The position numbers were made by a program, and so were the translations under genes. Under the pieces are notes generated by a model. The model worked only from the letters and a program-made list of their open reading frames with translations, ran no database searches and was not told the DNA's origin. From a virus, in the IMG/VR virus record IMGVR_UViG_3300020463_000007, positions 32,001 through 96,000 of that record: 64,000 nucleotides of DNA. One strand, 5' to 3'. Positions 6,653 to 54,097 of this stretch are shown piece by piece (position 1 is the first letter of the stretch; every line of letters starts with the position of its first letter).

Positions 6653-6660
6653 TATTTATA
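6653..6660 (-). promoter_or_regulatory. T4-type late promoter TATAAATA for sheath/tube
   Basis: Exact TATAAATA upstream of gp18. The ATAAATA core recurs on the minus strand at 2310, 2540, 3261, 8465, 23029, 23452, 27038, 30571, 35734, 42838, 44348, 46899, 51304, 52352, 56364 and 58815. Confidence 0.85.
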
Positions 6661-11210: not shown

Positions 11211-11648
11211 ATGAATAACATTGTCTGTAGCGGTGCCCTCTTCTACACCCTTGATACTCACAGATTTTTATTTCTATTTAGATCTAACGGTAAAAAAGCC
11301 GGATTATGGGGATTAGTAGGAGGTACAAATGAAGGAGTAGAAACTCCTTTTGAAGGACTACAAAGAGAAATTAAAGAAGAAATTGGTAGTGTTCCTGAAA
11401 TTAAAAAGGTGCTACCACTAGAATCCTTTGTATCTAATGATGCACACTTCCACTTTCATACATACTTGTGTGTAATAAAAAGTGAATTTATTCCTAAATT
11501 AAATAATGAACACAGCGGTTATGCATGGTGTAGTTTCCGTAACTGGCCTAAACCTTTACACTTAGGTTTGCGTAATACATTACAAAGCAAAGCTAATTTA
11601 ACTAAATTAGAAACTGTGTTCGAGACAATTAATTTACTTGACAATTAA
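11211..11648 (+). CDS. NUDIX hydrolase
   Basis: Nudix box G-x5-E-x7-REIKEEIG. Confidence 0.9.
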   Translation: MNNIVCSGALFYTLDTHRFLFLFRSNGKKAGLWGLVGGTNEGVETPFEGLQREIKEEIGSVPEIKKVLPLESFVSNDAHFHFHTYLCVIKSEFIPKLNNEHSGYAWCSFRNWPKPLHLGLRNTLQSKANLTKLETVFETINLLDN

Positions 11649-11666
11649 ATTAATAGAAAGTAAAAT
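11638..11666 (+). promoter_or_regulatory. Sigma70-type promoter of the heptose operon
   Basis: TTGACA-17 nt-TAAAAT, ending 6 nt before the hldE ATG. Confidence 0.75.
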
Positions 11667-11672
11667 GAGTGT

Positions 11673-12827
11673 ATGAAGGTTTTAGTATTAGGTGATATAA
11701 TAACTGACAAATATATCTACGGCAGTAGTTCAAGGATTAGTCCTGAGGCTCCGGTGCCAGTGGTCAATATTACTAATGCTGCAACTTCGCTTGGAGGAGC
11801 AGGGCTTGTTTTTGAAAATTTAAAAAGTTTAGGTGTAGATGTTACATTGTTTGATACAATGCAACCTCGCAGTACAAAAACTAGAATTATATCTGACGGA
11901 CATTACATCACTAGACTAGACGAAGATGAGCAAGCAGATGGTGAAGTTGTACTGAAAAAAGTTATCGATACAGACTTTTCACAATATGAATATGTAATAT
12001 TAAGTGACTACAACAAAGGTGTGTTAGATAATGCCAAACAAATTATTAAACACATTAATAGCCAAGGTTGTAAAGTTATTGTAGATCCTAAACGTAATGC
12101 ACAATTTTATCAAGATGCGTGGTTAGTAAAGCCTAATGCAAAAGAATTAATTGACTTTAATTTTAAAGGATGGCAAAGTAATATCATTACTACAGATGCT
12201 GACAAAAATGTAGTTGCTACAATAGATAATATTAAGTATAATGTACCTGTAGAAAAAGTTGAAGTTTCAGATGTTACTGGTGCTGGAGATTGTTTTTTAG
12301 CAGGATTTGTTTATGGACTAACAAAAGAATATAGTTATAAAAAATGTTTACAGATTGCTATAAAAGGATCAACTAAAAGTGTAAGTCGTGCGGGTACATA
12401 TATTCTTAAGCAAGAAGATTTAAATCAAGGTATAGTTTGGACTAACGGTGTATTTGATATACTACACACAGGGCATTTAGAATTATTAAGATATGCTAAT
12501 ACATTAGGAAAAAAACTTATAGTAGGAATTAATAGCGATCCTAGTGTTAAGAGATTAAAAGGCAATAGCAGACCAATTAATAGTGCAGAAGTTCGTAAAA
12601 AGAACTTAGAAACATTACCATGGGTAGATGAAGTAATAGTGTTTGACGATGACACTCCTTTAAAAATTATTGAAACTTTACAGCCTAATATAATTGTAAA
12701 AGGCGGAGATTATACTGTTGAAACAGTAGTAGGACATGAAATATCCAATGTTGTAATTTTTCCAACTATTAAAGGACATAGTACAACTGAAATTATAGAT
12801 AAAATGAAGGCAAATCATGAAAGCTGA
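11673..12827 (+). CDS. hldE: Bifunctional heptose-7-phosphate kinase / heptose-1-phosphate nucleotidyltransferase
   Basis: PfkB domain (RISPEAPVPV, LSDYNKG, DVTGAGD) fused to TNGVFDILHTGH..VKGGDY..GHSTT domain. Confidence 0.93.
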   Translation: MKVLVLGDIITDKYIYGSSSRISPEAPVPVVNITNAATSLGGAGLVFENLKSLGVDVTLFDTMQPRSTKTRIISDGHYITRLDEDEQADGEVVLKKVIDTDFSQYEYVILSDYNKGVLDNAKQIIKHINSQGCKVIVDPKRNAQFYQDAWLVKPNAKELIDFNFKGWQSNIITTDADKNVVATIDNIKYNVPVEKVEVSDVTGAGDCFLAGFVYGLTKEYSYKKCLQIAIKGSTKSVSRAGTYILKQEDLNQGIVWTNGVFDILHTGHLELLRYANTLGKKLIVGINSDPSVKRLKGNSRPINSAEVRKKNLETLPWVDEVIVFDDDTPLKIIETLQPNIIVKGGDYTVETVVGHEISNVVIFPTIKGHSTTEIIDKMKANHES

Positions 12828-13452
12828 AATACTTGCAGAAAATATAGTCAAAGGTTCAGGCGGACACGGATTAAAGAAAGATCAGTTAGTAAAAATTTTT
12901 ACTAGTATTGATAACTTAGAAGACTTTGCATACACTATGAAAAAAGTATTAGAACATGGTGGCAAAGATTATTTAACTACACAAAGTTTTGAATATAACA
13001 TTCCGGCATTTACTAATTTTACTAAATGGCATCATGTTGATGAAAAATATAATTTAGACTGGGGATTTGATAAGAAAGACGCTGGATGTTATATGTATGG
13101 AATTTTCAAAGATACTTCTCCTAGTACAGTAGACATTTTACAGTCAGAAGTAATTTATATTGGTGAGAGTAGAGCTACTACTAGAAATTGTATGCTAGGA
13201 CGAAGAACAGATTTTAAAGGTACTGTAAAAAACGAAAGGTTATCACCTTATGGTTGTGGTACAGCATTCAAAGAAAAGTTTGGTAAAGAAAATATAAAAT
13301 ATGTGTACCAAGCATATTTGCCAATGCATAATAGTCTTGTAAAAGAAGCAGAAATGCAGATGCTTTGCATGTATTATAAAAAGTATAAAGATATACCTGC
13401 ATGTAATCCTGTAAGCGATTTGCGTAGAGTAAAATTAAGAATGGAAAACTAA
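12817..13452 (+). CDS. Hypothetical protein with GIY-YIG-like motifs
   Basis: GCYMY...VIYIGES..R and a later E..L...P..N arrangement. Confidence 0.5.
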   Translation: MKAEILAENIVKGSGGHGLKKDQLVKIFTSIDNLEDFAYTMKKVLEHGGKDYLTTQSFEYNIPAFTNFTKWHHVDEKYNLDWGFDKKDAGCYMYGIFKDTSPSTVDILQSEVIYIGESRATTRNCMLGRRTDFKGTVKNERLSPYGCGTAFKEKFGKENIKYVYQAYLPMHNSLVKEAEMQMLCMYYKKYKDIPACNPVSDLRRVKLRMEN

Positions 13453-13793
13453 TGGAACATTTAAGAAAATATATAGGACTATACTTAACAGCATTAATTT
13501 TGCCTTTTATGTTTGGATATGGCGTAAGTGAAGATCATCCAATATGGGTTTGGTGGATAGCTTTTGCTCTTATAATATTGAAAACTCCTCCTTATAGTAT
13601 CAGTGATCGTTTTTGGGGAGCGTATGCAAGATTATTAGAATGGATATTAGGACCATTAATAAAGAGATTAAAAAAATTACCTTGGTGGGCTAGAACTATT
13701 ATAGCAATAGCAATATTGTACTTTGTGGAAGAATACTTTCTAGCATCACTTGGTTACACAATGTTACCTTGGAGAATGGATTTTGGAAGTTAG
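13452..13793 (+). CDS. Small membrane protein
   Basis: Three hydrophobic, Trp-rich segments; start overlaps upstream stop. Confidence 0.7.
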   Translation: MEHLRKYIGLYLTALILPFMFGYGVSEDHPIWVWWIAFALIILKTPPYSISDRFWGAYARLLEWILGPLIKRLKKLPWWARTIIAIAILYFVEEYFLASLGYTMLPWRMDFGS

Positions 13794-13803
13794 GAAAGTT
13801 AGT

Positions 13804-14217
13804 ATGAAGAATATATTTAAAAAAATTAATCAATCTATACCAGATTTTTGTTTGAGTCATTGGCTTTTTAGAATACCCTTAGCTATAGTTTTTATACAGC
13901 AAGGTTTATCTAAATTGCCTGTCACTATCGAAGAAGCAAGTACTTTTGATTTGCCATACTTAGTATGGTGGTTTGTAGCTTATGGTGAGCTTGGTGGTGG
14001 CTTAGGTTTAATTGCTGGTGGCGTGATAGCACGTTGGTGGGAAGAGATAGGAGATCTTATAACACGATTTAGCGGAATTACTATTTGTTCAATTATGACC
14101 GGAGTAATATGGATTGGACAGCCTGAGAATGTAATGGATGTATTATTATATGACAACCTACATTTATTTCTATGGGTAGGTGGACTGTATTTTGCTTTAA
14201 GAGGAAATAGACAATAA
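13804..14217 (+). CDS. DoxX-family membrane protein
   Basis: LFRIPLAIVFIQQGLSK..ELGGGLGL..TRF; ATG 13804 (AGGA upstream) preferred over TTG 13750. Confidence 0.75.
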   Translation: MKNIFKKINQSIPDFCLSHWLFRIPLAIVFIQQGLSKLPVTIEEASTFDLPYLVWWFVAYGELGGGLGLIAGGVIARWWEEIGDLITRFSGITICSIMTGVIWIGQPENVMDVLLYDNLHLFLWVGGLYFALRGNRQ

Positions 14218-15035
14218 TGAGAATACTAGTTACAGGGTACAAAGGATTTATAGGACATAATATTTCTCAATATTTAATTGATAAGGGACATGTAGTAGAA
14301 GGCTGGGAATTTATGGAAAATGCTGTTCCTGACCCTAGTGCTTACGATTGGGTAATACACCTTGGTGCTATTAGTGACACAACATTTACTGATGTTGAAC
14401 AAATAATGTCTAATAATTTTGAAAATAGTATGAGACTATTACAAGCATGTGATACTATGGGTACTAATTTTCAATATGCTTCTAGTGCAAGTGTATACGG
14501 TCCAACCACGCATTTTACAGAAGATGGTCCGCTCTTACCACAGAGTCCTTATGCATGGAGTAAGTACTTGTTAGATAGATTTGTTAACCAACATATAAAT
14601 GACTTTAATGTTATAGTACAAGGATTTAGATATTTTAATGTATACGGAGCATATGAAACTCATAAAGGAAATCAGGCTAGCCCTTACACTAAATTTACAA
14701 AACAGGCAAAAGAAGATAAAATTATAACCGTATTTGAAAATAGTGAAGATTACAAAAGAGATTTTGTATGTGTAGACGATGTATGCAATGTACATGAAAA
14801 AATGTTTAGTGTTGATAAATCAGGTATATGGAATATTGGTACAGGTTCCCCTGAGAGCTTTGAAGTCGTAGCCAGAACAATAGCCGAGAAGTATGGGGCT
14901 GACATTAAATATATACCTATGCCAGATAACTTAAAAGGTCAGTATCAAAAATATACATGTGCAGATTTAACAAAATTAAATTCAATAATAGACCATAAAT
15001 GGATAGATATTAAGGATTATATAAATGGAAGTTGA
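14217..15035 (+). CDS. hldD: ADP-L-glycero-D-manno-heptose 6-epimerase (extended SDR)
   Basis: TGYKGFIG, HLGAISDTT, YASSASVYG, YAWSK, RYFNVYG..HKG, YQKYTCAD. Confidence 0.9.
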   Translation: MRILVTGYKGFIGHNISQYLIDKGHVVEGWEFMENAVPDPSAYDWVIHLGAISDTTFTDVEQIMSNNFENSMRLLQACDTMGTNFQYASSASVYGPTTHFTEDGPLLPQSPYAWSKYLLDRFVNQHINDFNVIVQGFRYFNVYGAYETHKGNQASPYTKFTKQAKEDKIITVFENSEDYKRDFVCVDDVCNVHEKMFSVDKSGIWNIGTGSPESFEVVARTIAEKYGADIKYIPMPDNLKGQYQKYTCADLTKLNSIIDHKWIDIKDYINGS

Positions 15036-15441
15036 AAGACTTAGTGGTGTTGTACAAAAAGGTTGGGGTTACGAACTTATTTGGGCAACTAATGACAAGT
15101 ACTGTGGTAAAATTATGGTATTTGAGAAAAAAGGTAATAAGTTTTCTATGCACTTTCATAGAGAAAAAGACGAAACATGGTTTGTTAATAATGGCAAATT
15201 TACTGTAAGGTGGATCGATACTAAAACTGCCACACTACACGAACAAGAATTAATTGAAGGCCAGACTTGGCATAATCCACCCCTACAACCTCATCAGCTA
15301 GAAGCACTAGAAGATGGCAGTAGCATTACTGAAGTTAGTACGCCTGACTCAGTAGAAGATAATTATAGAATTATTCCCGGAGATAGTCAAAGTGAACGAA
15401 CAACAGATACCAGTGACGGAAACACCACAACCGATAATTAG
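15025..15441 (+). CDS. Cupin sugar isomerase/epimerase-like protein
   Basis: KGWGYE, SMHFHREKDETW and PHQL cupin metal motifs, EVST. Confidence 0.8.
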   Translation: MEVERLSGVVQKGWGYELIWATNDKYCGKIMVFEKKGNKFSMHFHREKDETWFVNNGKFTVRWIDTKTATLHEQELIEGQTWHNPPLQPHQLEALEDGSSITEVSTPDSVEDNYRIIPGDSQSERTTDTSDGNTTTDN

Positions 15442-16042
15442 GTGGTCATCAGACATTCCTACGTTAATAAGTAATTCTGAAAAGAATGCTAAAATTGTAA
15501 TTGGTCTTGATAGAGATGGTGTAATAAATGTAGACTTAGGAACCTATGTAACTAAGCCAGAAGACTTTCAGCCTATTAGTGGTAGCTTAGAAGCTGTTGC
15601 TACCATTAAAAAATTAGGCTTTCAAATTGTTATAATAACTAATCAAGGCGGCATACAAAAAGGTTTAATGACACAAGCAGACGTTGATAGAGTACATGAT
15701 CGTATGTTTAAATTACTAGGTGAAGCTGGTTGTGCCTTTATTGAAGCCTTATATTATAGTGAATCAAGTAGAAAAGATGATATGTATGCTAAACCTAACA
15801 CAGGAATGTTTAAGCGTTGTGAAAAAGAACATCCTGAAATAAAATTTGCTGGAGGATATTATGTTGGAGATAAAATTTCCGATTTAAAAGCCGCAATGAA
15901 AATAGGTGCAAAACCAATATTAGTCCGTACCGGATATGGTAAAGAAACAGAACAACTTTTAAATAGATTTACTTACAAAAAAATAAAAGCTAGAACAAAA
16001 GTTTATGATGATTTAAAAAGTTTTGTTGATACTTTAGATTAA
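15392..16042 (+). CDS. gmhB: D,D-heptose-1,7-bisphosphate phosphatase (HAD)
   Basis: LDRDGVIN, ITNQGGI, KPNTGM, VGDKISD, LVRTGYG; exact start uncertain. Confidence 0.9.
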   Translation: MNEQQIPVTETPQPIIRWSSDIPTLISNSEKNAKIVIGLDRDGVINVDLGTYVTKPEDFQPISGSLEAVATIKKLGFQIVIITNQGGIQKGLMTQADVDRVHDRMFKLLGEAGCAFIEALYYSESSRKDDMYAKPNTGMFKRCEKEHPEIKFAGGYYVGDKISDLKAAMKIGAKPILVRTGYGKETEQLLNRFTYKKIKARTKVYDDLKSFVDTLD

Positions 16043-22152: not shown

Positions 22153-23001
22153 TTATGTCCCAAGTGCTATAGCTAAAGCTGATACTGTTTCATCTACATA
22201 TTTTTTGTTGGTAGCTGATGTAGCAGTTGTTGGTGAGTTTGCTACTGTAGCTGATGTAAAAGCCGCTGTTGACGGTGTAGTTGCTCCTATAGTTGTGTTG
22301 TTTATTGTAGTATTATTTATTGGTCCTACTATATTTCCTGTTGTAGCATCTACCAACAAAGTAGTATCATTTGCATATACTGATCCTGTAAGATCACCAG
22401 TGATACCACCTAAGGCGTTAATAGTACCTCCAAAATTAGATTGTAATCCTACACCTAGGCCTCCGGCAACTGTTAATGCTCCAGTGTTTGCTGAATTGCT
22501 ATTATTTGTACTTTTGACAGCCACAGTTGTAAATGATCCAATTGCATCTCCTACACTAATTGTGCCTGTAATAGATCCTGATAAATTTCTATATGTAATA
22601 TTGTCTGGTGCTGTGGAACTAACTGCAAAAACTAATCTGCCTGAAGTTTTACCTAATGCAGTTGATCCTATTCCACCATCTGAATGTGTAAGTCCTGTGT
22701 GGTATTGATCCGTACCATTGTAAAAATAAAGCCCATTTGTTAAAGAAGATAAGTCAATTATATACGACTCTCCCCTAAACATTGTAATATTTGCACTCTC
22801 GCCACCGGGTGTCCAAATATATGCTGTATTTGATCCGTTTTCTGTGATTGTAAAATTTGCTGGAGTAGCTAGATCGAAAGTTTCTGATCCTTGTGTTTCT
22901 ACAAGCGATCTAGCAGTAATATTACCTAGAGCGTCAACAGTAAATCCAGTACTTTTAAATCCGTATGCTGATTCTAACGCTTTATTTGTAACTGTTGGCA
23001 T
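22153..23001 (-). CDS. Fibre/adaptor structural protein
   Basis: GALTVAGGLGV, TTIGATTP, ATNKKYVD fibre motifs; ends ALAIALGT. Confidence 0.7.
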   Translation of the reverse strand: MPTVTNKALESAYGFKSTGFTVDALGNITARSLVETQGSETFDLATPANFTITENGSNTAYIWTPGGESANITMFRGESYIIDLSSLTNGLYFYNGTDQYHTGLTHSDGGIGSTALGKTSGRLVFAVSSTAPDNITYRNLSGSITGTISVGDAIGSFTTVAVKSTNNSNSANTGALTVAGGLGVGLQSNFGGTINALGGITGDLTGSVYANDTTLLVDATTGNIVGPINNTTINNTTIGATTPSTAAFTSATVANSPTTATSATNKKYVDETVSALAIALGT

Positions 23002-23048: not shown

Positions 23049-23444
23049 TTAGATAACTTGAGGATTTTGATTCTGATAATACTGAGCAGTATAAATTATT
23101 TTAGATCCTTCTTTTGATGTGGTAGGATTCACTATTATATCTACATAACTTTGGTTAACTGTAGCTGAAACATCTATTAAATTTGTGCCTAGGTTGTTTC
23201 TAGCATATACTATTACACTTGCTTCGTCTAAACTAGCAGTTACTAATACCTTAATTATTTCTTTGTTATCTTTGTCATAATCAGCTGATATAGTATATTC
23301 TGCACTTGAAAAGTCAGATACATGGAATCTATCAATTAAAGTATCTGTATATGCTTGTTTCCAAGGACCGTTATAAGACACGGAGCCTGTAAGTAACACA
23401 CTATCCTTTAATCCTTTGCTGAAAAATTTATCCAATTTAAACAT
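23049..23444 (-). CDS. Small structural beta-sheet protein
   Basis: IDRF..DFSSAEY motif; own late promoter. Confidence 0.55.
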   Translation of the reverse strand: MFKLDKFFSKGLKDSVLLTGSVSYNGPWKQAYTDTLIDRFHVSDFSSAEYTISADYDKDNKEIIKVLVTASLDEASVIVYARNNLGTNLIDVSATVNQSYVDIIVNPTTSKEGSKIIYTAQYYQNQNPQVI

Positions 23445-23454
23445 TATACAATAT

Positions 23455-25287
23455 TTATTCGTTTTCTATTTTAAATAAATGATTGTATTCTGGTAGATAT
23501 AAGTATTCAATTTTACTATCTTTTAAGGTCCTTAAAGCATCATCTAGTGTTTCGACCAAAGGTTCACCTCCTAGATTAAAGCTAGTATTGAAAATTATAG
23601 GACAACCTGTTTTTTCTTTAAATGTTTTGATTAGATCATAATAATGTTTGTTTTGTTTTTCGTTCACTGTTTGTATTCTGCATGTTCCATCAACATGTAT
23701 AATAGCAGGAATTTTTTCTTCAACTCCTGGCTGACAGTTAACAGCATACATCATTGTAGGAGAACTTTCCATACCTCTCAAATCAAACCATTCATGCACA
23801 TCTTCTTCTAAGATAGTTCCTGCAAAAGGTCTGAAGTATTCTCTGCGTTTTACTTCATTTACATGATCTTTGCCTTTAGGATCTGTTGGATCATACAGTA
23901 ATGATCTATTACCTAAAGCTCTTGGACCATTTTCGCTTCTACCTTGGAATATTGCAACAATATTTTTATCTGTAATCAAATCAACTACATCTGCGTGTGT
24001 AACATTTTCTTTTACTTCTGCTTGATATGTTTTACCAATCGACTTTAATTGTTGTAATGTAAAATCGTAAGCTGGTCCTAAATAAAGATTATCGCCTGCC
24101 CTATCTTTGTCTTTTTGATAATAATACACGTTCTGTGTAAGTTCGTGATATAAAATTAAGGCTGCTCCCATAGCTGTACCAGCATCATTGCTAACAGGTT
24201 CGACATAAATGTTTAAATCTAAATCTTCTAGGTCTTTTAAGTAATGATAATTTGCAACACAATTTAAACCATAACCTCCACTTACTACAACATTTTTATT
24301 TCCTGATAGCTCAACTGCTTTTCTTATTAAATTACTAGCCTGTTGTTGTGTTTCTATTTGGCAAGCATAAGCAAGATCTCTTCTATTCTTTAAAATTGTT
24401 AAATCTACTTCGTCACCTTCTGGAGTTCCATTATCAACTGAGTCTGCACTCAGTTCATTGTAAAATTTATCATTTACTAATGCCGCATTAGGATATGTAG
24501 GAATTATTAAGTTTCTATTTGACAAGGGAACTTTGCCTTGGTCATCAAACAGAGTAGGAATATTATTGTTAGGCTTGCCGTATGGGAATAGTCCCATAGT
24601 TTTTCCTGCTTCAATTGCTGTAAAGCCACAATACTGTGTAACTGCTTCATAAACTTTTACAATACCAGCTCTATCACTGATTGTAATATCAAATTCAGTT
24701 TTATCAGCGTTTTGTGCTTTTACATAGTCTACTACGTTGGGACCTCTTGTGCCTACGTGCTTTTGTATTGTACCGAAATCAGCAGGATAATTACAATTAA
24801 AAATAGTTTCTGTTTCAAATCCAAAAGTTTGCTCTCTGCTAATTTCCATAGGAATAAAAGTTCCAGCGCCATCAATTACCACTGCTACTGCATCTGTAAA
24901 CCCGCTACGGTAAAATGCACAACCTGCGTGTAACTTATGATGTTCCATTGCAACATCTATTACTTGTGGATGAGGTTGCTTTCTGGCATGTCTATCAATA
25001 AGTCCAAGTTTTCTACATAATCCTGTGTATGCATCGTCCATAGAAAATTCTAAGGTTGGTCCTGTTTGATCTAAAGGTTGGGTATGAGCAACTACTAAGT
25101 AATCAAGTTTATCTGTGTAATCTAAAATTTTTACTATGGAAGCTAGAGGCCCGCCATCATATTTTGATCTGCTTAATCTTTCCTCTTCTATAGAAAATAC
25201 CACTTCTCCGTCTTTTAATAAACAAACACCTGCATTGTGTCCTCTTGCAATACCTGCAATCCATTTTGAATTATTTTTGTTGCTCAT
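23455..25287 (-). CDS. O-carbamoyltransferase (NodU/CmcH/TobZ family)
   Basis: HN..EEERLSR.K, HHKLHA, DGAG, AGKTMGL, SGGYGLNCVAN, DAGTAMG, ENGPRALGNRS, KRREYFRPFA, HVDGTCRIQTV, NTSFNLGGEPLVET. Confidence 0.93.
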   Translation of the reverse strand: MSNKNNSKWIAGIARGHNAGVCLLKDGEVVFSIEEERLSRSKYDGGPLASIVKILDYTDKLDYLVVAHTQPLDQTGPTLEFSMDDAYTGLCRKLGLIDRHARKQPHPQVIDVAMEHHKLHAGCAFYRSGFTDAVAVVIDGAGTFIPMEISREQTFGFETETIFNCNYPADFGTIQKHVGTRGPNVVDYVKAQNADKTEFDITISDRAGIVKVYEAVTQYCGFTAIEAGKTMGLFPYGKPNNNIPTLFDDQGKVPLSNRNLIIPTYPNAALVNDKFYNELSADSVDNGTPEGDEVDLTILKNRRDLAYACQIETQQQASNLIRKAVELSGNKNVVVSGGYGLNCVANYHYLKDLEDLDLNIYVEPVSNDAGTAMGAALILYHELTQNVYYYQKDKDRAGDNLYLGPAYDFTLQQLKSIGKTYQAEVKENVTHADVVDLITDKNIVAIFQGRSENGPRALGNRSLLYDPTDPKGKDHVNEVKRREYFRPFAGTILEEDVHEWFDLRGMESSPTMMYAVNCQPGVEEKIPAIIHVDGTCRIQTVNEKQNKHYYDLIKTFKEKTGCPIIFNTSFNLGGEPLVETLDDALRTLKDSKIEYLYLPEYNHLFKIENE

Positions 25288-26230
25288 CGTCTTCCTTCGG
25301 TTCTGGTTTACCTAAAACTCTATCAATAATATAGTTATGAATGTCTGAAGTCATTGTCATTAAATGTTCGTTGTGTCTTGATGTAGTTTCATCAGGCATG
25401 ATTCTGATTGGGTCATATACCCTTTCTTTCATTCCTAAATCAATAATGTTAAAGTAATCACAATCTGGATAAGATACGTTGATTGGATATGTTGGTCCAA
25501 GTACTACAGTTGACGGAGTGTCTACCATGTAAGATAAATGTTGTCCTACACTATCACAGCCTACAAAGTGATTTGCAAATTTAATAGCCGCTGTCCAATT
25601 TCTCAATGCAACTTGTTCTGGCATTGCTACATCATCAGTAAACTTATCTTTACTAAAGTCAAATCCCATTTCAGCCATTGTTACAACAGCAAAATCATTT
25701 TCTTGCAGTTTTCTAATTAATGCCTTAAGATCTTTAAATTCTATACTTCTGCCGGTGTTATCTACAAACGAACCATCTACATGTTGAATTGCTCTACCAA
25801 AAGGTTGTATTATTACTACTTTATCTTTTTTTAATTTTTCTTTGACTTGATTTATAATTTGTCTACCGGTTAGTATTTCTTCTTTAGAAAGAAACATTCT
25901 TGGTTTGTCTAGTTTTCTTAAACCTTTATTGTTTATTGCAATGTCATATCCTTGAGCAAGACTTGCTTGTTGATTGTAATATTCCCATATTCTATATGGT
26001 TCTGGAGATACAATATCTCTATCTTTTAATTTTTCTTGAAATAAATTTTTATGCCAATTATCATATGCACGATGGTCAAGATCTGGATGTCCTTTAAATG
26101 CATCTGTGCCGCCTTCGCATACAATAACAAAATCGTCATCATCTGATTCTTTTGCGTATAATTCGAAAGCCGGTATTGAACTTACTACTCTACCGTAGCC
26201 ACCGTTCACAAAAAAAGCCTTTGATCTCAT
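25271..26230 (-). CDS. Glycosyltransferase, GT9 (heptosyltransferase)-like
   Basis: FVGCDSVGQHL..TPSTVVLGPT matches the GT9 DS..H...V.L.GPT motif; GGYGR near N-terminus. Confidence 0.75.
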   Translation of the reverse strand: MRSKAFFVNGGYGRVVSSIPAFELYAKESDDDDFVIVCEGGTDAFKGHPDLDHRAYDNWHKNLFQEKLKDRDIVSPEPYRIWEYYNQQASLAQGYDIAINNKGLRKLDKPRMFLSKEEILTGRQIINQVKEKLKKDKVVIIQPFGRAIQHVDGSFVDNTGRSIEFKDLKALIRKLQENDFAVVTMAEMGFDFSKDKFTDDVAMPEQVALRNWTAAIKFANHFVGCDSVGQHLSYMVDTPSTVVLGPTYPINVSYPDCDYFNIIDLGMKERVYDPIRIMPDETTSRHNEHLMTMTSDIHNYIIDRVLGKPEPKEDDEQQK

Positions 26231-26270
26231 CTATAATTCCTTTTTAGGTTTGTAGTAAACATTGTACTAC

Positions 26271-26278
26271 TACTTATA
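26271..26278 (-). promoter_or_regulatory. Late promoter variant (TATAAGTA) for the GT9/carbamoyltransferase pair
   Basis: One mismatch from TATAAATA, 40 nt upstream of the GT start. Confidence 0.55.
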
Positions 26279-26316
26279 GGTTGAGACCAAAGGCTGTACT
26301 TAATTATGGTTTAGAT

Positions 26317-27003
26317 TTATTCCCAGGTAAAGCTAATTTGTTTATGTGGAATTTTCCAAGCATCAATGCTTGCATAGTTAGTCCTTACAGATTTTAACCA
26401 TGTTGCGATTGTTTGCATTTCTGTTTTTTGATCAGATGTAAACTCGTCAGCTTTATCAGTAATTGCTGCTTCGATTCTAGCTGCTTCGGCATCATAACCA
26501 TCAAACAAAGCTGATTTATCTATAGGATGAGCCAAATATGGAGGCATTGTAAATTTGCCTGTGCCTGAATTATATTTTACTGGTGTCGAACCATCATGTA
26601 TACTCTGCACAAAGTTTTGTGTATTATAGGAGTATTCATAGTTCTCATCATCACCTGGTGTTGTAAATTTGTAATCTGCTATACCACCTGTAGCATCTTT
26701 TGCTGGTATTGTATCGTCGCCAAGCAAATATGCTGCTACTTCTGGATTATCATTAGCGTCAAGTATGTGAAAAGTATGTGGACCATTCATTGTACTATCA
26801 TCATGTTTGTGATCAGGTAATTGGTTATCCAGTACATCCTTACTGTCATCACTGCTTTCTATTGTAAATAAATTTCCATCTTTGTCAACACTAAAGATGT
26901 GGTAACGTATACCTCTCCAAGTAACATCTACTGTGTTTCCGTCGGTCACAGAAGGGTTCCATGGTTCATTTGGATACGTGTATGTAAAAGTTTTTGTAAT
27001 CAT
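26317..27003 (-). CDS. Probable tail-fibre assembly chaperone
   Basis: Acidic; C-terminal helix ending WLKSVR..Y...WKIP resembles Tfa-type ends; follows fibre-tip genes. Confidence 0.5.
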   Translation of the reverse strand: MITKTFTYTYPNEPWNPSVTDGNTVDVTWRGIRYHIFSVDKDGNLFTIESSDDSKDVLDNQLPDHKHDDSTMNGPHTFHILDANDNPEVAAYLLGDDTIPAKDATGGIADYKFTTPGDDENYEYSYNTQNFVQSIHDGSTPVKYNSGTGKFTMPPYLAHPIDKSALFDGYDAEAARIEAAITDKADEFTSDQKTEMQTIATWLKSVRTNYASIDAWKIPHKQISFTWE

Positions 27004-27061
27004 ATCTGTTTCCTTAATTAAGTACCTTTCGTATTATTATTTATCATAAACCACTGTTGTA

Positions 27062-28159
27062 TTACTGATCATGACTCTCTATAGCACCTCTGTATTTAAT
27101 CCTAACAATACTGTTTCCACCGGAAAATCCATGTGTTCTAACACTACTACAAGCAAAAGTAGATGGTGCTGGCATAGCTGGTCTCCACCACGATTGGCAA
27201 CCCGTAAATTCATAACATTCGCACATTTTATTACCACTCCAACAACTTGTTGGTCTACCACCTCTTGTTGGTCCTCTATCCAATCCTTGAACAGCATGAT
27301 CCATACTTTGGAATGGAGATCCTGCGTAAGTATACATGTCGTTCCAAGTATGATTAACTTGCATTTCTGCTCCGCATGTTGCATATAACATAGGTGGTGT
27401 ATGGATAATCTGTCTGTGACAGGGCCAACAACATGGGTTACAATGTCCATAGAAATGACAAGCTATTCTGTTAACATCTCCAGGACAGCAAACAATATTT
27501 TTAAAATATGAAGTTCCTGCTCCGCCAATATATGCTTGAGGTAAACTACTTGTAGTAGGCCAGTTATTTCCTGATCCTAAGTTACATACTATTCCACAAC
27601 CCGCACCAGTAGCGTTACCGTCTAGGTCAAATCCTGGTGTAATACATGCACCATTTGATCCCAAACAGCACATCATTGAACCATCGTTAATACACATACT
27701 TCTGCCGCCATATCCGTTTTGAGCACAGATACACGCACACGTATATGTACAAGCTGGTACATTTCCTGGGCATATCGTAACACATGCAGATCCAGTGTTA
27801 CCACCACACATACAGTTGCCTCCTGAATTACAAGAACGACCTCCATAAATCCAAATATAACCATTAGCAGTCATAGGTGTTGTAATTCTCATATAGGCAC
27901 CCGGATTACCTCCTACGCCTGCACCACAACAACACAAACAAGCACTACCTCTACCGCCTGCACCCCAAATTTCTATTTCTAAGTCAACAACTTTGTTTGA
28001 ATCACAAGTAATTTGACAGCCATACCATTTTGCACAGTGAGGGTACTCATTGAAGTTTCCAGGAGTAAATCCCCAGATTCTTCCGTATTCTAAATTAGTT
28101 TCTTTGAAGCCAGTTGTTAAAAGCTCTCTTGAATTTAATAATGATTTTAATGTAGCCAT
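27062..28159 (-). CDS. Cys/Gly-rich fibre-tip/adhesin paralogue 3
   Basis: MATL..NLE.G, EIWGAGG, CCC, C.CYE..GC, GG..VRI; about 35 Cys by manual count. Confidence 0.75.
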   Translation of the reverse strand: MATLKSLLNSRELLTTGFKETNLEYGRIWGFTPGNFNEYPHCAKWYGCQITCDSNKVVDLEIEIWGAGGRGSACLCCCGAGVGGNPGAYMRITTPMTANGYIWIYGGRSCNSGGNCMCGGNTGSACVTICPGNVPACTYTCACICAQNGYGGRSMCINDGSMMCCLGSNGACITPGFDLDGNATGAGCGIVCNLGSGNNWPTTSSLPQAYIGGAGTSYFKNIVCCPGDVNRIACHFYGHCNPCCWPCHRQIIHTPPMLYATCGAEMQVNHTWNDMYTYAGSPFQSMDHAVQGLDRGPTRGGRPTSCWSGNKMCECYEFTGCQSWWRPAMPAPSTFACSSVRTHGFSGGNSIVRIKYRGAIESHDQ

Positions 28160-28175
28160 ATTTTTTTATTCCTAA

Positions 28176-29171
28176 TTAAGTCGCCTTATATAAAATTCTA
28201 ACATATCCAAGGCCTCCTCTAGAGCCAACGTCTCTAACGTCTGGACAACCCATTGCCATAGTAGCGCCTTGTCCTGGTGGTACAAAAGGCACACAACCTA
28301 TTGCTTCATAACAAGCACAAATTTTAGCTGAATTCCAACAACTACCTGTGCTTGGATGCATTGGTGAAATATTTCTTGCAACAGCGCCTTTGGCATTCAT
28401 TTGAGGTGCTCGCCAGTTTCCTGATTGTGCTTGACCTGGCATGTTTCCATCGTCCCCTGCATGCATTGATGTTGCTTGATATCCGCCTGACACGTATTGT
28501 CCATGGGGTATAGCATTTGATGCTTGTATATAATCTGTGTTTGAGCTGGTGTCGCAAGTCCATTGTCCATTACAGGAATATGTACCTGGGCAGTTGATAT
28601 CACCTCCATATGCTGTTGCTACTGCATATGTGTTTCTACATCCACATACAATTCCGCAACCAACACTTAGTCCACAGCCTTGATAAGCTGCGAAACAACA
28701 GTTCTGTAAACAACACATAGCAGATGTACTTGTTCTACATCCTGTAAATCCGCCGTTACCACCTTGAGCACACATACAACTACATGTACTAGCTGTACCT
28801 AAACATATTGACACACAAGTTGCCTCTGAACATCCTGGATAACAAAATGAAGCGTTTGGCATACATGGATGACCTGTGTTACCACAAACATATCCATTAG
28901 CAGTCATAGTTACTGTTTTCTTAGCGTATGAACCTGATTGTCCACCTACGCTGAAGTTACAACAACATTGACACCCTGTTGAACCGCCTGCTCCCCAAAT
29001 CTCAATTAGTGCAGTACCTGCACCTGGTGAATACCAAGCAAAACAATTAGTAAAACATCCAAATTGTCTTGCAGAGCAAAAAACGTAGATTTCGCCGTCT
29101 TCTAAATTACTTTCGTCAATTGGATAACTTTTTGACAGTCTTTCAGTTATTAATGTGTCTAGTGTTGCCAT
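28176..29171 (-). CDS. Cys/Gly-rich fibre-tip/adhesin paralogue 2
   Basis: Same motif order; about 33 Cys. Confidence 0.75.
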   Translation of the reverse strand: MATLDTLITERLSKSYPIDESNLEDGEIYVFCSARQFGCFTNCFAWYSPGAGTALIEIWGAGGSTGCQCCCNFSVGGQSGSYAKKTVTMTANGYVCGNTGHPCMPNASFCYPGCSEATCVSICLGTASTCSCMCAQGGNGGFTGCRTSTSAMCCLQNCCFAAYQGCGLSVGCGIVCGCRNTYAVATAYGGDINCPGTYSCNGQWTCDTSSNTDYIQASNAIPHGQYVSGGYQATSMHAGDDGNMPGQAQSGNWRAPQMNAKGAVARNISPMHPSTGSCWNSAKICACYEAIGCVPFVPPGQGATMAMGCPDVRDVGSRGGLGYVRILYKAT

Positions 29172-29184
29172 TTTCTAATCCTTA

Positions 29185-30201
29185 TCACGTTGCCGCTCTC
29201 CATAAAATTCTTACTGCACCGTGTCCACCGCGTTGACCTTGGTCTCTAACGCTGTTACACGTCATAGACGGAACTCCGCCGTGTCCTCTTGGTGCTGTTG
29301 ATTGGCAGCCGTTGTTTTCATAACATCCGCACAGTCGACTAAAGTAACAAAATTGATTGGTACTCCATCCGTTGGAAGGTGATCTCTTCATTCCTTCTAG
29401 TGCATAGCTATGATAATGATGATATCCAGCCGTACCACCTATTGCTATCTGACTGTCATTGTCTCCTGAGAAGTTTACCATACCTCCACCTGTAGCGTGT
29501 GTACCTGCTGGAACTCTCACATGATATTGTACATAACAGTGATTAGCACTATCACAATTATAAAAACTTGTACAACTAATTCCGCCTGGGCAGTTGATAT
29601 CGCCTCCGTATGCGTTAGCTATCGTTCCTGCCACTGTACCGTCGGTCCTTGTATTACATGCTAGTCCGCAACCTCCACCCCAAGCTGAACCAGCTGGATT
29701 TGTCATTGCTGTTGTACAGAAACTACCGTCTGCTACAAAACAACAAAATGAGCTTGCACTTGGAGCACACATAGTTGTGCCGCCTTCGCCACCTTGGGCA
29801 CATAAACATCCACATATTGTGTTATCACTGGCTGCGCCGAAGTAACAAACACATGTGCCTGTACTTCTGCCTCTGTAACACATTGAGTCAGCGTTGCCGC
29901 ATGAGCTACCTACGCATCCACAAACTTTTGAATTCGCATCTACTAAAAAACATTTTACAACGTATGCTCCTGGATTGCCCGGAACACCCTGACCACAACA
30001 ACACATTTTACCGCCAGAACCACCTGCACCCCAAATTTCAACTCTTAAACAACCGTTACCTGGTGACTTATATGTAAATTTGTGACATTGGCTGTGTTCT
30101 GATGCTGGTGTCCAGTAGAATAGTCTTCCTGTTTCAAGATTCTCTTCTTGACCCACGTAAGCTGGATTTCTACCTTCTATTATCGATTGTAACGTTGCCA
30201 T
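29185..30201 (-). CDS. Cys/Gly-rich fibre-tip/adhesin paralogue 1
   Basis: Same motif order; about 30 Cys. Confidence 0.75.
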   Translation of the reverse strand: MATLQSIIEGRNPAYVGQEENLETGRLFYWTPASEHSQCHKFTYKSPGNGCLRVEIWGAGGSGGKMCCCGQGVPGNPGAYVVKCFLVDANSKVCGCVGSSCGNADSMCYRGRSTGTCVCYFGAASDNTICGCLCAQGGEGGTTMCAPSASSFCCFVADGSFCTTAMTNPAGSAWGGGCGLACNTRTDGTVAGTIANAYGGDINCPGGISCTSFYNCDSANHCYVQYHVRVPAGTHATGGGMVNFSGDNDSQIAIGGTAGYHHYHSYALEGMKRSPSNGWSTNQFCYFSRLCGCYENNGCQSTAPRGHGGVPSMTCNSVRDQGQRGGHGAVRILWRAAT

Positions 30202-30216
30202 TTAAATTTTCTCCGT

Positions 30217-30549
30217 TTAGTTACTTGTAAGAACCCAGCCATAAGTTGCATTTGTATAAGTCAAAGTAATCACAGCGTTAGCTACGTTAATAGTCAAATC
30301 TTCTGCTGTACCTTGTATGTTATTACTGTTGCGTCCTACGGTGATATTATTACTTGCCGCTTGTCCTGCTATGTCGTAAATCTGTACCACGTCACCTGCC
30401 ATTGTATCTGCTGCTGCCGGTAGGGTGATTGTAAAAGCACCACCTGATGCGTCTGCTAAGATACGATCATTAACTAGAGCTTGGTAGGTTGTAGTAATAG
30501 ACCTTACGGTTGAAGCCTGACCTGGAGTTGCATTAATATATCTTCCCAT
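30217..30549 (-). CDS. Small tail-fibre connector protein
   Basis: AFTITLP..GD.V...D......NNITV.RN...I.G...L.Y.....GW beta-sandwich pattern. Confidence 0.65.
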   Translation of the reverse strand: MGRYINATPGQASTVRSITTTYQALVNDRILADASGGAFTITLPAAADTMAGDVVQIYDIAGQAASNNITVGRNSNNIQGTAEDLTINVANAVITLTYTNATYGWVLTSN

Positions 30550-30573: not shown

Positions 30574-30891
30574 TTATGCCGCTGTCTCAATTCCAAACGC
30601 TACTGCACTTACGTTAGCAACATTTGTGTAGACAACTAATAGTTTTCCGGCTTGCATAACAATACCAGTTCTTTCTAGTAACGCCTTTGGTGTAAGTTCT
30701 GTATCAAATTCGATGAACTCACCGTTTGTCGGCGTACTAGCATCTGCTATCGCTAATCTTACGAAGCACGAGCTGTTACCTCTGTTTAGCATATTGATGC
30801 TTACTACAGCAAATGTAGACGCCGGACAGGTATATACAGTTGTATATGTACCTGCTGCTACATCGCTTGCTCCTAATCTTCCACTTGCCAT
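30574..30891 (-). CDS. Small structural adaptor (paralogue of 40920 and 45032 genes)
   Basis: VYTCPA..V..N..IVM.AG..V pattern shared with paralogues. Confidence 0.6.
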   Translation of the reverse strand: MASGRLGASDVAAGTYTTVYTCPASTFAVVSINMLNRGNSSCFVRLAIADASTPTNGEFIEFDTELTPKALLERTGIVMQAGKLLVVYTNVANVSAVAFGIETAA

Positions 30892-44329: not shown

Positions 44330-44358
44330 ACTGTATCTCCTATACAGTATTTATAGGT

Positions 44359-51241: not shown

Positions 51242-51363
51242 TTTATTCTCCTATATATAATAAATTATTTTACCTTCACGGTAAGGCTGTCAATTGTATT
51301 TACTATTTATACGAAAATATGCCCGAAAATAGGCTCAAAACGACACTTTTTGCAAATTTTCTG

Positions 51364-52346: not shown

Positions 52347-52354
52347 GCTAGTAT

Positions 52355-54097
52355 TTATACCGTTTGGTCTGTTCCTGGAGGAGGTGTTCCGCCTGGTGTA
52401 TCTCCTGTTACTGTATCTGGTGGTGCTCCTGCTCCGCCATCTTCTGGTGCTGGTGTATCATCAAGAATATCTTCGGCTCCATCAATGTCTGCACTAATAC
52501 CTGCAGAACTGATACCAACACTTCTCATTTCGCCTGAAGAATCACCTGGAGGTGGTTGTAAGTTTTCATCATTCTCTTCTCTCCATAATCTTTCATTTTC
52601 TGCAATTTCTTCTTTACTAAATCCTAAAAATCTTTCTAGTGCAAATCTATTTGACACGTAAGGTATTGCACTCATCTGTGTAAATGTTGGGACTCTTGCA
52701 TTATCAAGTTCTGCTTGTCTATAACTTGCAAAATTTTGTGGCGGTTGAAATTTTAAATCAAACATTGATGTATCAATGTTAACACCTTTTTCTAATAAAA
52801 ATAATTTAAATTCTTTATCAAACGCTTGTGTAACAAGTCCTTGTAATCTTTCACAATACTTGTTAAATCTTAATTCTTGAATATATGCTGTGCCTACTCT
52901 TCCATCATTGTACGAACTAGTAGCATCATCTGCCCCGGTCGGTAAATATGAACTAGGAATTCGTAAGCCACGTACGAGCTTATTAGTAAAGTATCTGAGA
53001 TCATCGATCTCTCCTAGGTTTGTGCCTCCTGGTAATGTTTCTACTTTTGATCCTCTACCTTCAGCTGTTTGCGGAAAGAAATAATCTTCATTAATTGACA
53101 ACGGATTATAACTACTATCAATTACATTATTACCTCCGCCTGTTGAACTTGGTATTCTTCTTTGATGTATTTCTGTTTTTACACGCTCAACAAATTGCAT
53201 CGCAAGGTGCGTTGGCATGTTTCCTACGTCTACATAAAACACTCTTCGCTCTGGTGCTCTTTGTACTCTATAAATTATAATTGCATCTTCTAATAGTTCT
53301 TTTTGTTTATAAACTTTAAATATACCTTCTAAAAGTGAATTACCGAAAGGATAATTGTTATCAAGTCCTTCTGATAAACTTAAATGTACTATATGTTCAG
53401 CGTTAATTGCTACTTCACCTTCACCTTGCTGATATCTACTACCTGCTTGTTGAGGTGCATTACCAACCATACCTCTTACGCCGCCGCTTTGATATCCACT
53501 ACCTCCTCCTGTAATATTACCATTAGTAATATGCGGAGTTGTAGCTACCATATCTTTGAAGTTTAAATTCATATCACGTATGATATATTGCTCTGGTGTT
53601 TTGCCTTCAGATTCATTAACAATAATTCTTATTAATTTTGCAGGATCAACATGAAATAATTTTTTTGTTTCAGGATCTCTAATAAACAATTGATCGCCAA
53701 ACTTGAATACATTACGCATTATTCTAAACATACGTGTGTGAAAGTTTTGTAGATTACACCATTGTCTTAGATATTGTCCTAATATGCTTACTTCTGAATT
53801 AGTTGCTGATTTGTTAAACTCAAATCTAAAGTTAGTTGAATTTTCTTTGTTGGACTGTGAACAAAATTCTGCTAGTATATCTAAAGCCGCGTTGACTTCT
53901 GAATCATTGTCCATGGTATTATATTGTCCGTAGCGTTCAACACGATTAGGACTTCCAACATACACATCTGGTAGATATGAACTATAGTTTGTTCTAGCTG
54001 GTCCTGCTTGAGCACCGCCGCCTCTTGTAAATGGAGAATAGCTTCCGGTCATATTGTCACCGGTCTGTACTGGTGTAAAGTATTTTTTCCAACTCAT
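52355..54097 (-). CDS. gp20: Portal protein
   Basis: LEDAIIIYRVQRAPERRVFYVDVGNMP, EDYFFP..GRGSKVETLPGG.NLGEIDD, ELRF.K. Confidence 0.97.
   Translation of the reverse strand: MSWKKYFTPVQTGDNMTGSYSPFTRGGGAQAGPARTNYSSYLPDVYVGSPNRVERYGQYNTMDNDSEVNAALDILAEFCSQSNKENSTNFRFEFNKSATNSEVSILGQYLRQWCNLQNFHTRMFRIMRNVFKFGDQLFIRDPETKKLFHVDPAKLIRIIVNESEGKTPEQYIIRDMNLNFKDMVATTPHITNGNITGGGSGYQSGGVRGMVGNAPQQAGSRYQQGEGEVAINAEHIVHLSLSEGLDNNYPFGNSLLEGIFKVYKQKELLEDAIIIYRVQRAPERRVFYVDVGNMPTHLAMQFVERVKTEIHQRRIPSSTGGGNNVIDSSYNPLSINEDYFFPQTAEGRGSKVETLPGGTNLGEIDDLRYFTNKLVRGLRIPSSYLPTGADDATSSYNDGRVGTAYIQELRFNKYCERLQGLVTQAFDKEFKLFLLEKGVNIDTSMFDLKFQPPQNFASYRQAELDNARVPTFTQMSAIPYVSNRFALERFLGFSKEEIAENERLWREENDENLQPPPGDSSGEMRSVGISSAGISADIDGAEDILDDTPAPEDGGAGAPPDTVTGDTPGGTPPPGTDQTV

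Follow-up and report, generated by a model that had tools for sequence, protein, structure and literature searches.

The window analysed here is a stretch of 64,000 nucleotides (nt) comprising bases 32001–96000 of the 155.6-kb IMG/VR virus record IMGVR_UViG_3300020463_000007, and "the record" denotes the whole 155.6 kb. Its minus strand encodes, inside a tail-fibre module, a predicted glycosyltransferase (GT) of the GT9 fold and an O-carbamoyltransferase, which follow three Cys/Gly-rich fibre-tip proteins and a probable chaperone, while the plus strand carries genes for ADP-heptose synthesis. We propose, with about even confidence, that the enzyme pair carbamoyl-heptosylates the Cys/Gly-rich fibre tips of the phage itself, late in infection.

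In the proposed pathway, ADP-heptose would be made by the phage enzymes HldE, GmhB and HldD, the first, isomerase step being left perhaps to a cupin or to a host enzyme. The GT9-fold enzyme of 319 amino acids (aa) would transfer the heptose, and the translationally coupled TobZ/NodU-type enzyme would then O-carbamoylate the transferred sugar. The likeliest acceptor would be the phage's own receptor-binding tips, encoded just upstream together with their chaperone, and these would be modified in the cytoplasm at a late stage of infection, either ahead of fibre assembly or in the course of it.

Linkage of the enzyme pair to the fibre tips

An IMG/VR scan seeded with the GT9-like protein recovered 80 loci whose products are 52–91% identical to that of the window. 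In all 80 viral loci the carbamoyltransferase gene comes next after GT9, always inside the fibre module. The genes are usually arranged as fibre, p105, p110, a set of two or three Cys/Gly-rich genes accompanied by chaperone-like ones, GT9, carbamoyltransferase, p131 and p282. Over about 150 loci the association of the two enzymes with Cys-rich genes is almost invariant. Loci without a Cys-rich gene detected by phmmer contain open reading frames (ORFs) of 8–12% Cys and 16–23% Gly all the same, and in four rearranged loci the Cys/Gly-rich ORFs are inverted and lie on the other side of the pair. In a reverse scan seeded with the tips, the pair adjoins them in every locus with sufficient flank except contig L106, and genomes with lone additional tip paralogues carry the pair as well. 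The gene linkage is established by these comparisons.

The association extends beyond the close relatives. A search of one genome per species, covering 185,579 species, gave 15 matches to the GT9 family, all of them on contigs of metagenome-assembled genomes (MAGs) that carry this phage module. Among the 15 are freshwater and groundwater relatives, 35–39% identical, with a Cys-rich ORF of 249–1257 aa directly before the pair. Ten complete genomes of cyanophage isolates are concordant in all ten cases: pair and tips are both present in S-SSM7, S-CAM1 and P-SSM2 and both absent from P-TIM68, S-SM2, S-T4, Sf-CH8, P-RSM4, S-CAM8 and S-MS29. Among the seven phages lacking the pair, four carry heptose genes and three a carbamoyltransferase of another kind. 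Giant tail genes also flank distant GT9 homologues (~27% identity) in Vibrio and Aeromonas phages of 79 kb; these homologues have no carbamoyltransferase beside them.

The preliminary description of this stretch, made from the sequence alone, had proposed that GT9, carbamoyltransferase, Cys-rich and hld genes co-occur across phages, and this is borne out by the ~150 loci, the ten isolate genomes and the HldD epimerase, which is found in 17 of 20 pair-carrying records, including both complete ones. The siting of the pair inside the fibre module holds equally, both in the gene order of the window and in all 80 related loci, and the gene coordinates, strand and 17-nt overlap of the two enzyme genes are as first placed. 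The tie is to the Cys/Gly-rich tips and not to tail fibres generally.

The MAG contigs among these relatives (L150–L163) were binned with Methanobacteriota, Neomarinimicrobiota (335 kb and 153 kb), Chitinophagales, Flavobacteriales, Woesearchaeota and others. They are probably misbinned phage contigs, possibly including near-complete jumbo-phage genomes.

The siting also bears on the idea that the pair glycosylates and carbamoylates modified DNA bases, which would be in keeping with the frequent action of phage glycosyltransferases on DNA. The cassette is located in the fibre module and not among replication genes, no hydroxymethylase or base-modification genes lie near it, and the coupling to Cys-rich tips would go unexplained. 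No GT9 enzyme is known to us to modify DNA. DNA hypermodification is highly improbable on these grounds and was rejected as a reading.

The three tip paralogues contain 8.9–10% Cys and 14–17% Gly and share 34–41% pairwise identity. Paralogue 1 has 461 homologues, some of them carrying PF21722, and falls into viral clusters in the protein atlas; PF21722 is matched by 14 of 56 members of the tip family, in which a CCC motif is almost invariant. A tblastn search of phages with one of the Cys-rich proteins gave no match, probably an effect of the BLAST low-complexity filter, since homologues exist in S-CAM1, S-SSM7 and P-SSM2; tip homologues were sought instead by local unfiltered BLAST, HMMER and a genome profile search.

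The AlphaFold model of paralogue 2 (pLDDT 77) superimposes on residues 76–277 of the cyanophage Pam3 fibre gp24 (7ypx_A) with a VIA-align Z of 14.4 and a root-mean-square deviation of 3.3 Å over 193 aligned residues. The Bxb1 tail tip (Z 11.2) and the TG domains of ALK/LTK (Z 8–10) follow, all other matches staying at or below 4.3, and Foldseek concurs. The model has the TG-type layout, with an N-terminal helix followed by a TNF-like sandwich and a glycine-rich lattice. Pam3 gp24 is a receptor-binding fibre docked by its N-terminal helix, and its chaperone gp25 is encoded behind it (PMC9608196). As judged from the model, the Cys-rich proteins fold like this receptor-binding tip, and the three Cys-rich tip genes of the preliminary description stand by their composition and by the structure modelled for paralogue 2.

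The protein p228 occupies the slot that gp25 holds behind gp24. Its assignment as a chaperone is transitive: p228 is weakly similar to S-CAM1 SXBG_00223 (E 2e-4), whose own relatives include same-slot proteins that score 27.2 bits with PF16778 Phage_tail_APC (cut-off 26.6). The module may fairly be called "tips plus chaperone", the chaperone being the weaker half.

A fourth, lone Cys/Gly-rich paralogue is seen in L135/L136 (9989–10951) and at the same place in L116, L122 and L139. Its place is immediately upstream of the two long fibre genes, at a distance of some 25 kb from the cassette, and the window has no such copy.

Many relatives (L031, L033, L034, L040, L042 and many others; L062, L064, L066) have extra genes at the cassette site. 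These are a second GT9-like paralogue or a PF05175 methyltransferase after the carbamoyltransferase gene or, between GT9 and carbamoyltransferase, one or two copies of an unassigned family of 270–305 aa. The latter ORFs were considered as GT9 paralogues and set aside, the GT9 profile giving no match to them. Relatives with such additional tailoring genes may make a larger decoration.

The two enzymes and the predicted heptose donor

The GT9-like protein is a divergent one. Pfam gives no match to it up to E 10, and a PDB sequence search returned nothing useful; its PF01075 score in the genome search is 10.8 bits against a cut-off of 22, and the NCBIfam RfaQ model matches with E 5.6e-4. PF01075 is matched by 21 of 53 diverse members of the phage family (best E 1.8e-7), and some relatives of 64–74% identity carry PF01075 together with the JGI label "ADP-heptose:LPS heptosyltransferase" (LPS, lipopolysaccharide). 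The family profile finds marginal WaaC/WaaF matches only in the PDB (E 1–2). The AlphaFold model, made from an alignment of 53 sequences, has a pLDDT of 95, and VIA-align places it next to Veillonella 3tov (Z 22.5), WaaF (20.5), TibC (19.6) and WaaC (18.8), with other GT-B families at or below 11.9; the top Foldseek matches are GT9 throughout. The model, the two structure searches, RfaQ and the PF01075 matches of relatives thus uphold the earlier GT9-like assignment, and the fold is established.

Alignment with E. coli WaaC by hhalign pairs the family motif GCDSVGQH with VDTGLSH, so that D226 and H231 correspond to WaaC D261 and H266, and R161 to K192. D226 and H231 are invariant in the phage family, and R161 is found in 52 of 53 members. 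By this alignment, the ADP-heptose-binding residues of WaaC (K192, D261, H266) are matched by conserved residues. Heptose is the predicted sugar, and the co-occurrence of HldD supports its transfer indirectly.

The catalytic site differs. TibC uses D110 as the catalytic base (PMC4358343), and the canonical Asp position (WaaC D13, TibC D110) is occupied by Arg14 in the phage protein and by Arg in 52 of 53 members, within the motif GG-x-G-R-V. WaaC and WaaF have G-D after the first strand where the phage family has G-R, and the structural register agrees. The hhalign comparison left the N-terminal half of the protein unaligned with WaaC, and the Asp-to-Arg call therefore rests on the motif register and the structural ranges. 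The phage proteins therefore form a distinct subfamily having the GT9 fold without the canonical base.

Conservation in the family is nearly the same in the acceptor-side N-domain (0.48) and in the donor-side C-domain (0.47), which is compatible with a single acceptor retained by phages whose hosts differ widely. An exhaustive HMMER search of 1.84 billion representatives gave just 366 GT9-like relatives at E ≤0.001, so that the bulk of cellular GT9 enzymes lay out of its reach. Among 90%-identity cluster representatives, 3,288 match the transferase family.

The missing Asp leaves room for a role without transfer to a macromolecule: the GT9-fold protein could be a sugar-nucleotide-binding helper, a lectin or a tip assembly factor, or the pair could make a soluble carbamoyl-heptose, for example as a ligand or cofactor of the tips. 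Besides the Arg found in place of the base in 52 of 53 members, the chaperone-like genes flanking the GT9 gene would fit such a role, and GT9-fold proteins without known catalysis do exist, as in the NDH-PSI subunit chains (Z 18). We nevertheless regard it as quite improbable: the positions that bind the donor do not vary, real sugar chemistry is indicated by the intact carbamoyltransferase strictly paired with the protein and by the co-occurring heptose pathway, and many relatives add the second GT9 paralogue, the methyltransferase or the 270–305-aa family.

An Arg where the base is expected, together with the very high Cys content of the tips, also led us to consider a sugar–sulfur linkage. 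Heptose would then be S-linked to tip cysteines, with Arg14 stabilising a thiolate nucleophile where a catalytic base would otherwise act, and the carbamoyl-heptose would make up part of the receptor-binding surface or protect the tips until release. We hold this variant to be doubtful. If real, it would be without precedent on virus particles as an S-linked heptosylation, or indeed as a heptosylation of any kind, and would concern phages abundant in the ocean.

The carbamoyltransferase is a 610-aa protein in which both Pfam domains score past their cut-offs (Carbam_trans_N, E 2.5e-24, 86.8 bits; Carbam_trans_C, E 8.6e-60, 201.6 bits). It matches PHROG 1601 with E 1.5e-165, and its PDB relatives include the carbamoyltransferase 7xb6, NovN, GdmN and TobZ (E 1e-38 to 1e-50). 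With the NCBIfam NodU equivalog it reaches 137.9 bits where the cut-off is 1000, so that the enzyme is a member of the superfamily and not NodU itself; the earlier label of a NodU-type transferase stands in the sense of the TobZ/NodU superfamily. Its ORF shares positions 25271–25287 (17 nt) with that of the GT9-like protein. Carbamoylation would follow heptose transfer in the order proposed here.

The heptose genes lie on the plus strand and end 7.4 kb from the end of the carbamoyltransferase gene, in agreement with the ~7 kb first given. HldE, GmhB and HldD are divergent members of their families, as their scores lie under the equivalog cut-offs. The GmhA isomerase (TIGR00441) has no match in the 155.6-kb record, itself about 44% of the genome. 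A cupin accompanies the heptose genes in every phage examined (S-SSM7, S-CAM1, P-SSM2, P-TIM68 and S-SM2), and it may replace GmhA as a non-canonical sedoheptulose-7-phosphate isomerase. The NUDIX hydrolase directly upstream of hldE might act on ADP-sugars. L011 and L018 have heptose units without p211, p113 and the DoxX-like gene, which in the window lie between hldE and hldD.

The carbamoyltransferase gene is immediately followed by the heptose genes in S-CAM1, P-SSM2 and several contigs, and an overlap with its stop codon is frequent; in S-SSM7 the heptose genes lie about 3.6 kb downstream with four other genes between. The kinase and adenylyltransferase halves are separate genes in the cyanophage relatives, stand in the opposite order and are ~35% identical to the bacterial-type HldE of the window. 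Since the latter is fused, lies at another site and is this distant from the split genes, sequence comparison suggests that the ADP-heptose pathway was recruited separately, twice. The pair implies heptose genes and not the reverse, because P-TIM68 and S-SM2 have heptose genes, in large glycan clusters, without this GT9.

Timing of expression and the acceptor

A candidate T4-type late box, TATAAGTA, precedes the GT9 gene. The same TATAAGTA is found 33–41 nt upstream of GT9 in L005, L006 and L012 and, owing to an insertion, 47 nt upstream in L007, and L064 has an exact TATAAATA upstream of its GT9 gene. Terminator-like hairpins lie just before the GT9 upstream region in L024, L064 and L076. Motifs of the form TATAARTA are rarer in the window than expected (9 against 17.5), and three of the four exact TATAAATA boxes are located 19–63 nt before gene starts, those of the sheath gene and two other minus-strand genes. 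On this evidence the jumbo phage probably uses T4-type late promoters, and a late promoter before the GT9 gene is plausible.

The sigma-70-like site before hldE has its −35 hexamer overlapping the end of the NUDIX coding sequence. Sites of this class are not enriched, with 87 in the window against 90.6 in shuffles, and one of two relatives keeps the site (TTGACT-17-TATAAT in L011, none in L018). The preliminary description had placed a late-type promoter before GT9 and an early one before the heptose genes, and had concluded that the donor is made early and transferred late. The late box is present and its position is kept in relatives, but its function is putative and its motif class depleted; the early-type site is present at 11/12, but its class does not exceed shuffles and just one relative of two retains it. 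The division into early donor and late transfer is weak, for many relatives have heptose genes that overlap the stop codon of the carbamoyltransferase gene and so belong to the late transcription unit. The heptose genes of the window themselves come after the late genes gp14 and gp15.

Phage T5 encodes the receptor-blocking protein Llp beside the gene for its receptor-binding protein. By the same logic, the present pair could mask a host envelope glycan (LPS, O-chain, capsule or surface glycoprotein) with carbamoyl-heptose, blocking superinfection or the sticking of progeny to debris, and would stand beside the tips because a receptor-binding protein and the enzyme that masks its receptor are exchanged as a unit. 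All characterised GT9 enzymes apart from the bacterial autotransporter heptosyltransferases (BAHT family, TibC/Aah) act on LPS, and 7-O-carbamoyl-heptose is known in the Pseudomonas core, where it is made by WapO/PA5005 (PMC8005017). The literature reads phage heptose and GT genes in this way (PMC3037559, PMC7029224), and in other cyanophages the heptose genes belong to large glycan clusters that are separate from the structural genes.

Masking appears rather unlikely all the same. The LPS of marine Synechococcus contains neither heptose nor Kdo (PMC4515613), so that the cyanophage carriers infect hosts in which the canonical acceptor does not occur. A late unit, as indicated by the hairpins and by the late boxes before GT9 in relatives, would be badly timed for exclusion. 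An acceptor-side domain conserved across marine, freshwater and groundwater phages is a poor fit with variable host glycans, the GT9-like family was found on phage contigs only, and the coupling tracks Cys-rich proteins of many sizes and no host feature. The phage's own tips are favoured as the acceptor on largely the same grounds, namely because the coupling persists through rearrangements, size changes and different phage lineages, because the family is found on phage contigs only, because its acceptor side is conserved as much as its donor side, and because the cyanobacterial hosts concerned lack the canonical LPS acceptor.

Several points weigh against modification of the tips. On contig L106 the tips and chaperone are present and the pair is not adjacent, and the conserved gene order is in part shared descent, since most loci come from related phages. 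The tip family has no invariant Ser or Thr. The GT9-like enzyme lacks both the catalytic Asp of WaaC and TibC and the substrate-handling parts of TibC, so that its activity is an assumption. The published virion proteomes (S-SM1, S-PM2 and Syn9; Sullivan 2010) are those of phages without the module, and the fibre regions of marine T4-like phages are hot spots that gather glycan genes, read as modifiers of the O-chain (PMC7029224, PMC3037559). One published study of P-SSM2 gives reverse-transcription quantitative PCR of marker genes only.

Gene layout, source phage and known systems

The features of the window are collected in Table 1. In order of transcription, the minus strand encodes the 1592-aa and 1602-aa fibres, p105, p110, the three Cys-rich paralogues, p228, GT9, the carbamoyltransferase, p131, p282 and a 2036-aa protein. 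Converging on the 2036-aa gene, the plus strand carries gp14-like and gp15 genes, the NUDIX hydrolase, fused HldE, p211, p113, the DoxX-like gene, HldD, the cupin and GmhB.

Table 1. Genes and candidate promoters discussed in the text (positions in the window)
Feature	Position	Strand	Basis or remark
Exact TATAAATA boxes	6653-6660, 44348-44355, 51304-51311, 52352-52359	-	on coding strand
NUDIX hydrolase	11211-11648	+	after gp15, directly upstream of hldE
Sigma-70-like site TTGACA-17-TAAAAT	11638-11666	+	directly before hldE; score 11/12
Fused HldE: heptose-7-phosphate kinase and heptose-1-phosphate adenylyltransferase	11673-12827	+	Pfam PfkB and CTP_transf_like; NCBIfam HldE E 1e-79
p211	12817-13452	+	no family match
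p113	13452-13793	+	no family match
DoxX-like small membrane protein	13750-14217	+	Pfam DoxX E 1e-7
HldD-type ADP-glyceromanno-heptose 6-epimerase	14217-15035	+	TIGR02197 E 4.9e-69
Cupin	15025-15441	+	PHROG 7851 ("cysteine dioxygenase") E 4e-36; weak cupin/mannose-6-phosphate isomerase matches
GmhB-type heptose 1,7-bisphosphate phosphatase	15392-16042	+	NCBIfam PRK08942 E 2e-40
Structural gene, 2036 aa	16039-22149	-	next after p282
p282, Gly-rich, fibre-like	22153-23001	-	53/80 loci; weakly similar to P-SSM2 tail fibre
p131, conserved module member	23049-23444	-	directly after carbamoyltransferase in 69/80 loci
TobZ/NodU/NovN-type O-carbamoyltransferase, 610 aa	23455-25287	-	Pfam, PHROG and PDB relatives
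GT9-fold glycosyltransferase, 319 aa, predicted ADP-heptose-dependent	25271-26230	-	model, fold search, donor motif
TATAAGTA, candidate T4-type late box	26271-26278	-	1 mismatch to T4 late box; 40 nt before GT9 ATG
p228, 228 aa, no Cys, probable fibre assembly chaperone	26317-27003	-	transitive similarity
Cys/Gly-rich fibre-tip paralogue 3, 365 aa, 35 Cys	27062-28159	-	composition, paralogue alignment
Cys/Gly-rich fibre-tip paralogue 2, 331 aa, 33 Cys	28176-29171	-	AlphaFold model, VIA-align, Foldseek
Cys/Gly-rich fibre-tip paralogue 1, 338 aa, 30 Cys	29185-30201	-	composition, paralogue alignment
p110, small fibre-module protein	30217-30549	-	PHROG tail/tail-spike families down to E 1e-16
p105, small fibre-module protein	30574-30891	-	PHROG tail fibre family E 4.6e-10
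Long fibre, 1602 aa	30907-35715	-	six CBM_5_12 stretches (Pfam E 1.7e-36); opens conserved gene order
Long fibre, 1592 aa	35754-40532	-	paralogue of 1602-aa fibre

Homologues of the long fibres lie upstream of the cassette in most related loci. Six CBM_5_12 modules, which are chitin- or carbohydrate-binding, are uncommon among phage fibres, and their presence in the 1602-aa fibre hints at a polysaccharide receptor. The small protein p105 is 48% identical to S-CAM1 SXBG_00228 and P-SSM2 PSSM2_302 and is found in 63 of 80 loci, while p110 resembles the C-terminal end of long tail fibres, aligning with residues 1370–1476 of the S-SSM7 tail fibre. In some relatives p131 is part of a fusion, in fibre-like proteins of 365–684 aa.

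The record is 44% complete according to CheckV, and close relatives with the same module are 353 and 364 kb long and 98–100% complete. The gene psbA is absent from the record and from five relatives, including two complete ones of about 350 kb, and the 1114-aa tail sheath has its nearest counterparts in the jumbo phages Atu_ph07, Phosso and PA5oct. A cyanophage origin was excluded for these two reasons, and the sequence assigns the window to an uncultured T4-like myovirus, a marine jumbo phage with a genome of about 350 kb. The nearest isolate homologues of the cassette genes are those of the cyanomyoviruses S-SSM7, S-CAM1/3, Sf-FS3, P-SSM2 and P-SSM5, with 41–49% identity for the GT9-like protein and 47–62% for the carbamoyltransferase. 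Megablast of the window stretch against phages gave zero matches. The "moraphage" of the literature belongs to another lineage.

Genes of the cassette type have been described as LPS genes whose use is unclear, as possible "stuffer DNA" (PMC3037559) or as O-chain modifiers (PMC7029224). The window adds a jumbo carrier that is not a cyanophage, a separately recruited fused HldE, the phage-only distribution of the GT9-like family, the concordance of ten genomes and a late-box variant of conserved position. If the proposal is right, a large group of marine phages, which includes the cultured Prochlorococcus and Synechococcus phages P-SSM2, S-SSM7, S-CAM1/3 and Sf-FS3, chemically edits its own receptor-binding tips. 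Genes labelled as "LPS genes" or "stuffer DNA" since 2005–2010 (PMC3037559) would then be reassigned, a post-translational layer would be added to host range in the main primary producers of the ocean, and a GT9 subfamily working without the canonical base would be defined.

A full-text literature search on phage tail-fibre glycosylation by a heptosyltransferase found nothing relevant, and the nearest precedents are the glycosylation of mycobacteriophage virions and the heptosylation of adhesins by TibC/Aah. Mycobacteriophages (Freeman et al. 2023, as reported in PMC12619734) use their own GTs to decorate their own virion proteins, as is proposed here. According to that report, their GT families and sugars are different, the targets are the C-termini of capsid and tail-tube proteins and not tips, and the hosts are Actinobacteria; neither carbamoylation nor a phage-made sugar nucleotide is described there.

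TibC/Aah, with the adhesins TibA/AIDA-I (PDB 4rap, 4rb4; PMC4358343), shares with the phage enzyme the GT9-type GT-B core (Z 19.6) and the ADP-heptose donor, here predicted, and its gene lies beside that of a surface adhesin which is modified in the cytoplasm. The kinship claimed in the preliminary description applies to this core and not to the rest. The N-terminal β-barrel of TibC is missing, residue 1 of the model aligning with TibC residues 92–96, as is the four-Cys iron finger: the phage protein has 3 Cys in 319 aa, and no Cys column in its family is at least 90% conserved. The catalytic Asp110 is replaced by Arg. The phage system adds a carbamoyltransferase partner, and its presumed acceptor has a TNF-like/glycine-rich fold and not a β-helix.

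WapO (PA5005), which carbamoylates HepII of the Pseudomonas core at the 7-O position, offers a parallel to the combined heptose and O-carbamoyl chemistry (PMC8005017). WaaC and WaaF resemble the phage enzyme in fold (Z 18.8–20.5) and in the donor-binding motif. Unlike them, the phage enzyme lacks the Asp13 of WaaC, has a sequence similarity under the Pfam threshold and belongs to a family that was found on phage contigs only, embedded among fibre genes, and the cyanobacterial hosts of related phages have no Kdo/heptose core.

The protein O-fucosyltransferase POFUT1 is an inverting GT-B enzyme that acts on small folded Cys-rich modules, the EGF repeats, and reportedly works without a catalytic base, aided by an Arg. 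It provides a lead only, being a eukaryotic enzyme of the endoplasmic reticulum lumen that uses GDP-fucose and belongs to another GT family.

The tips themselves compare with Pam3 gp24/gp25, the S16 gp38 adhesin tip and the TG domain of ALK/LTK, and a probable chaperone gene follows here, as gp25 does in Pam3. In contrast to these proteins, the tips of the present module contain 30–35 Cys each and an almost invariant CCC motif, occur as two or three tandem paralogues, and have two tailoring enzymes constantly alongside.

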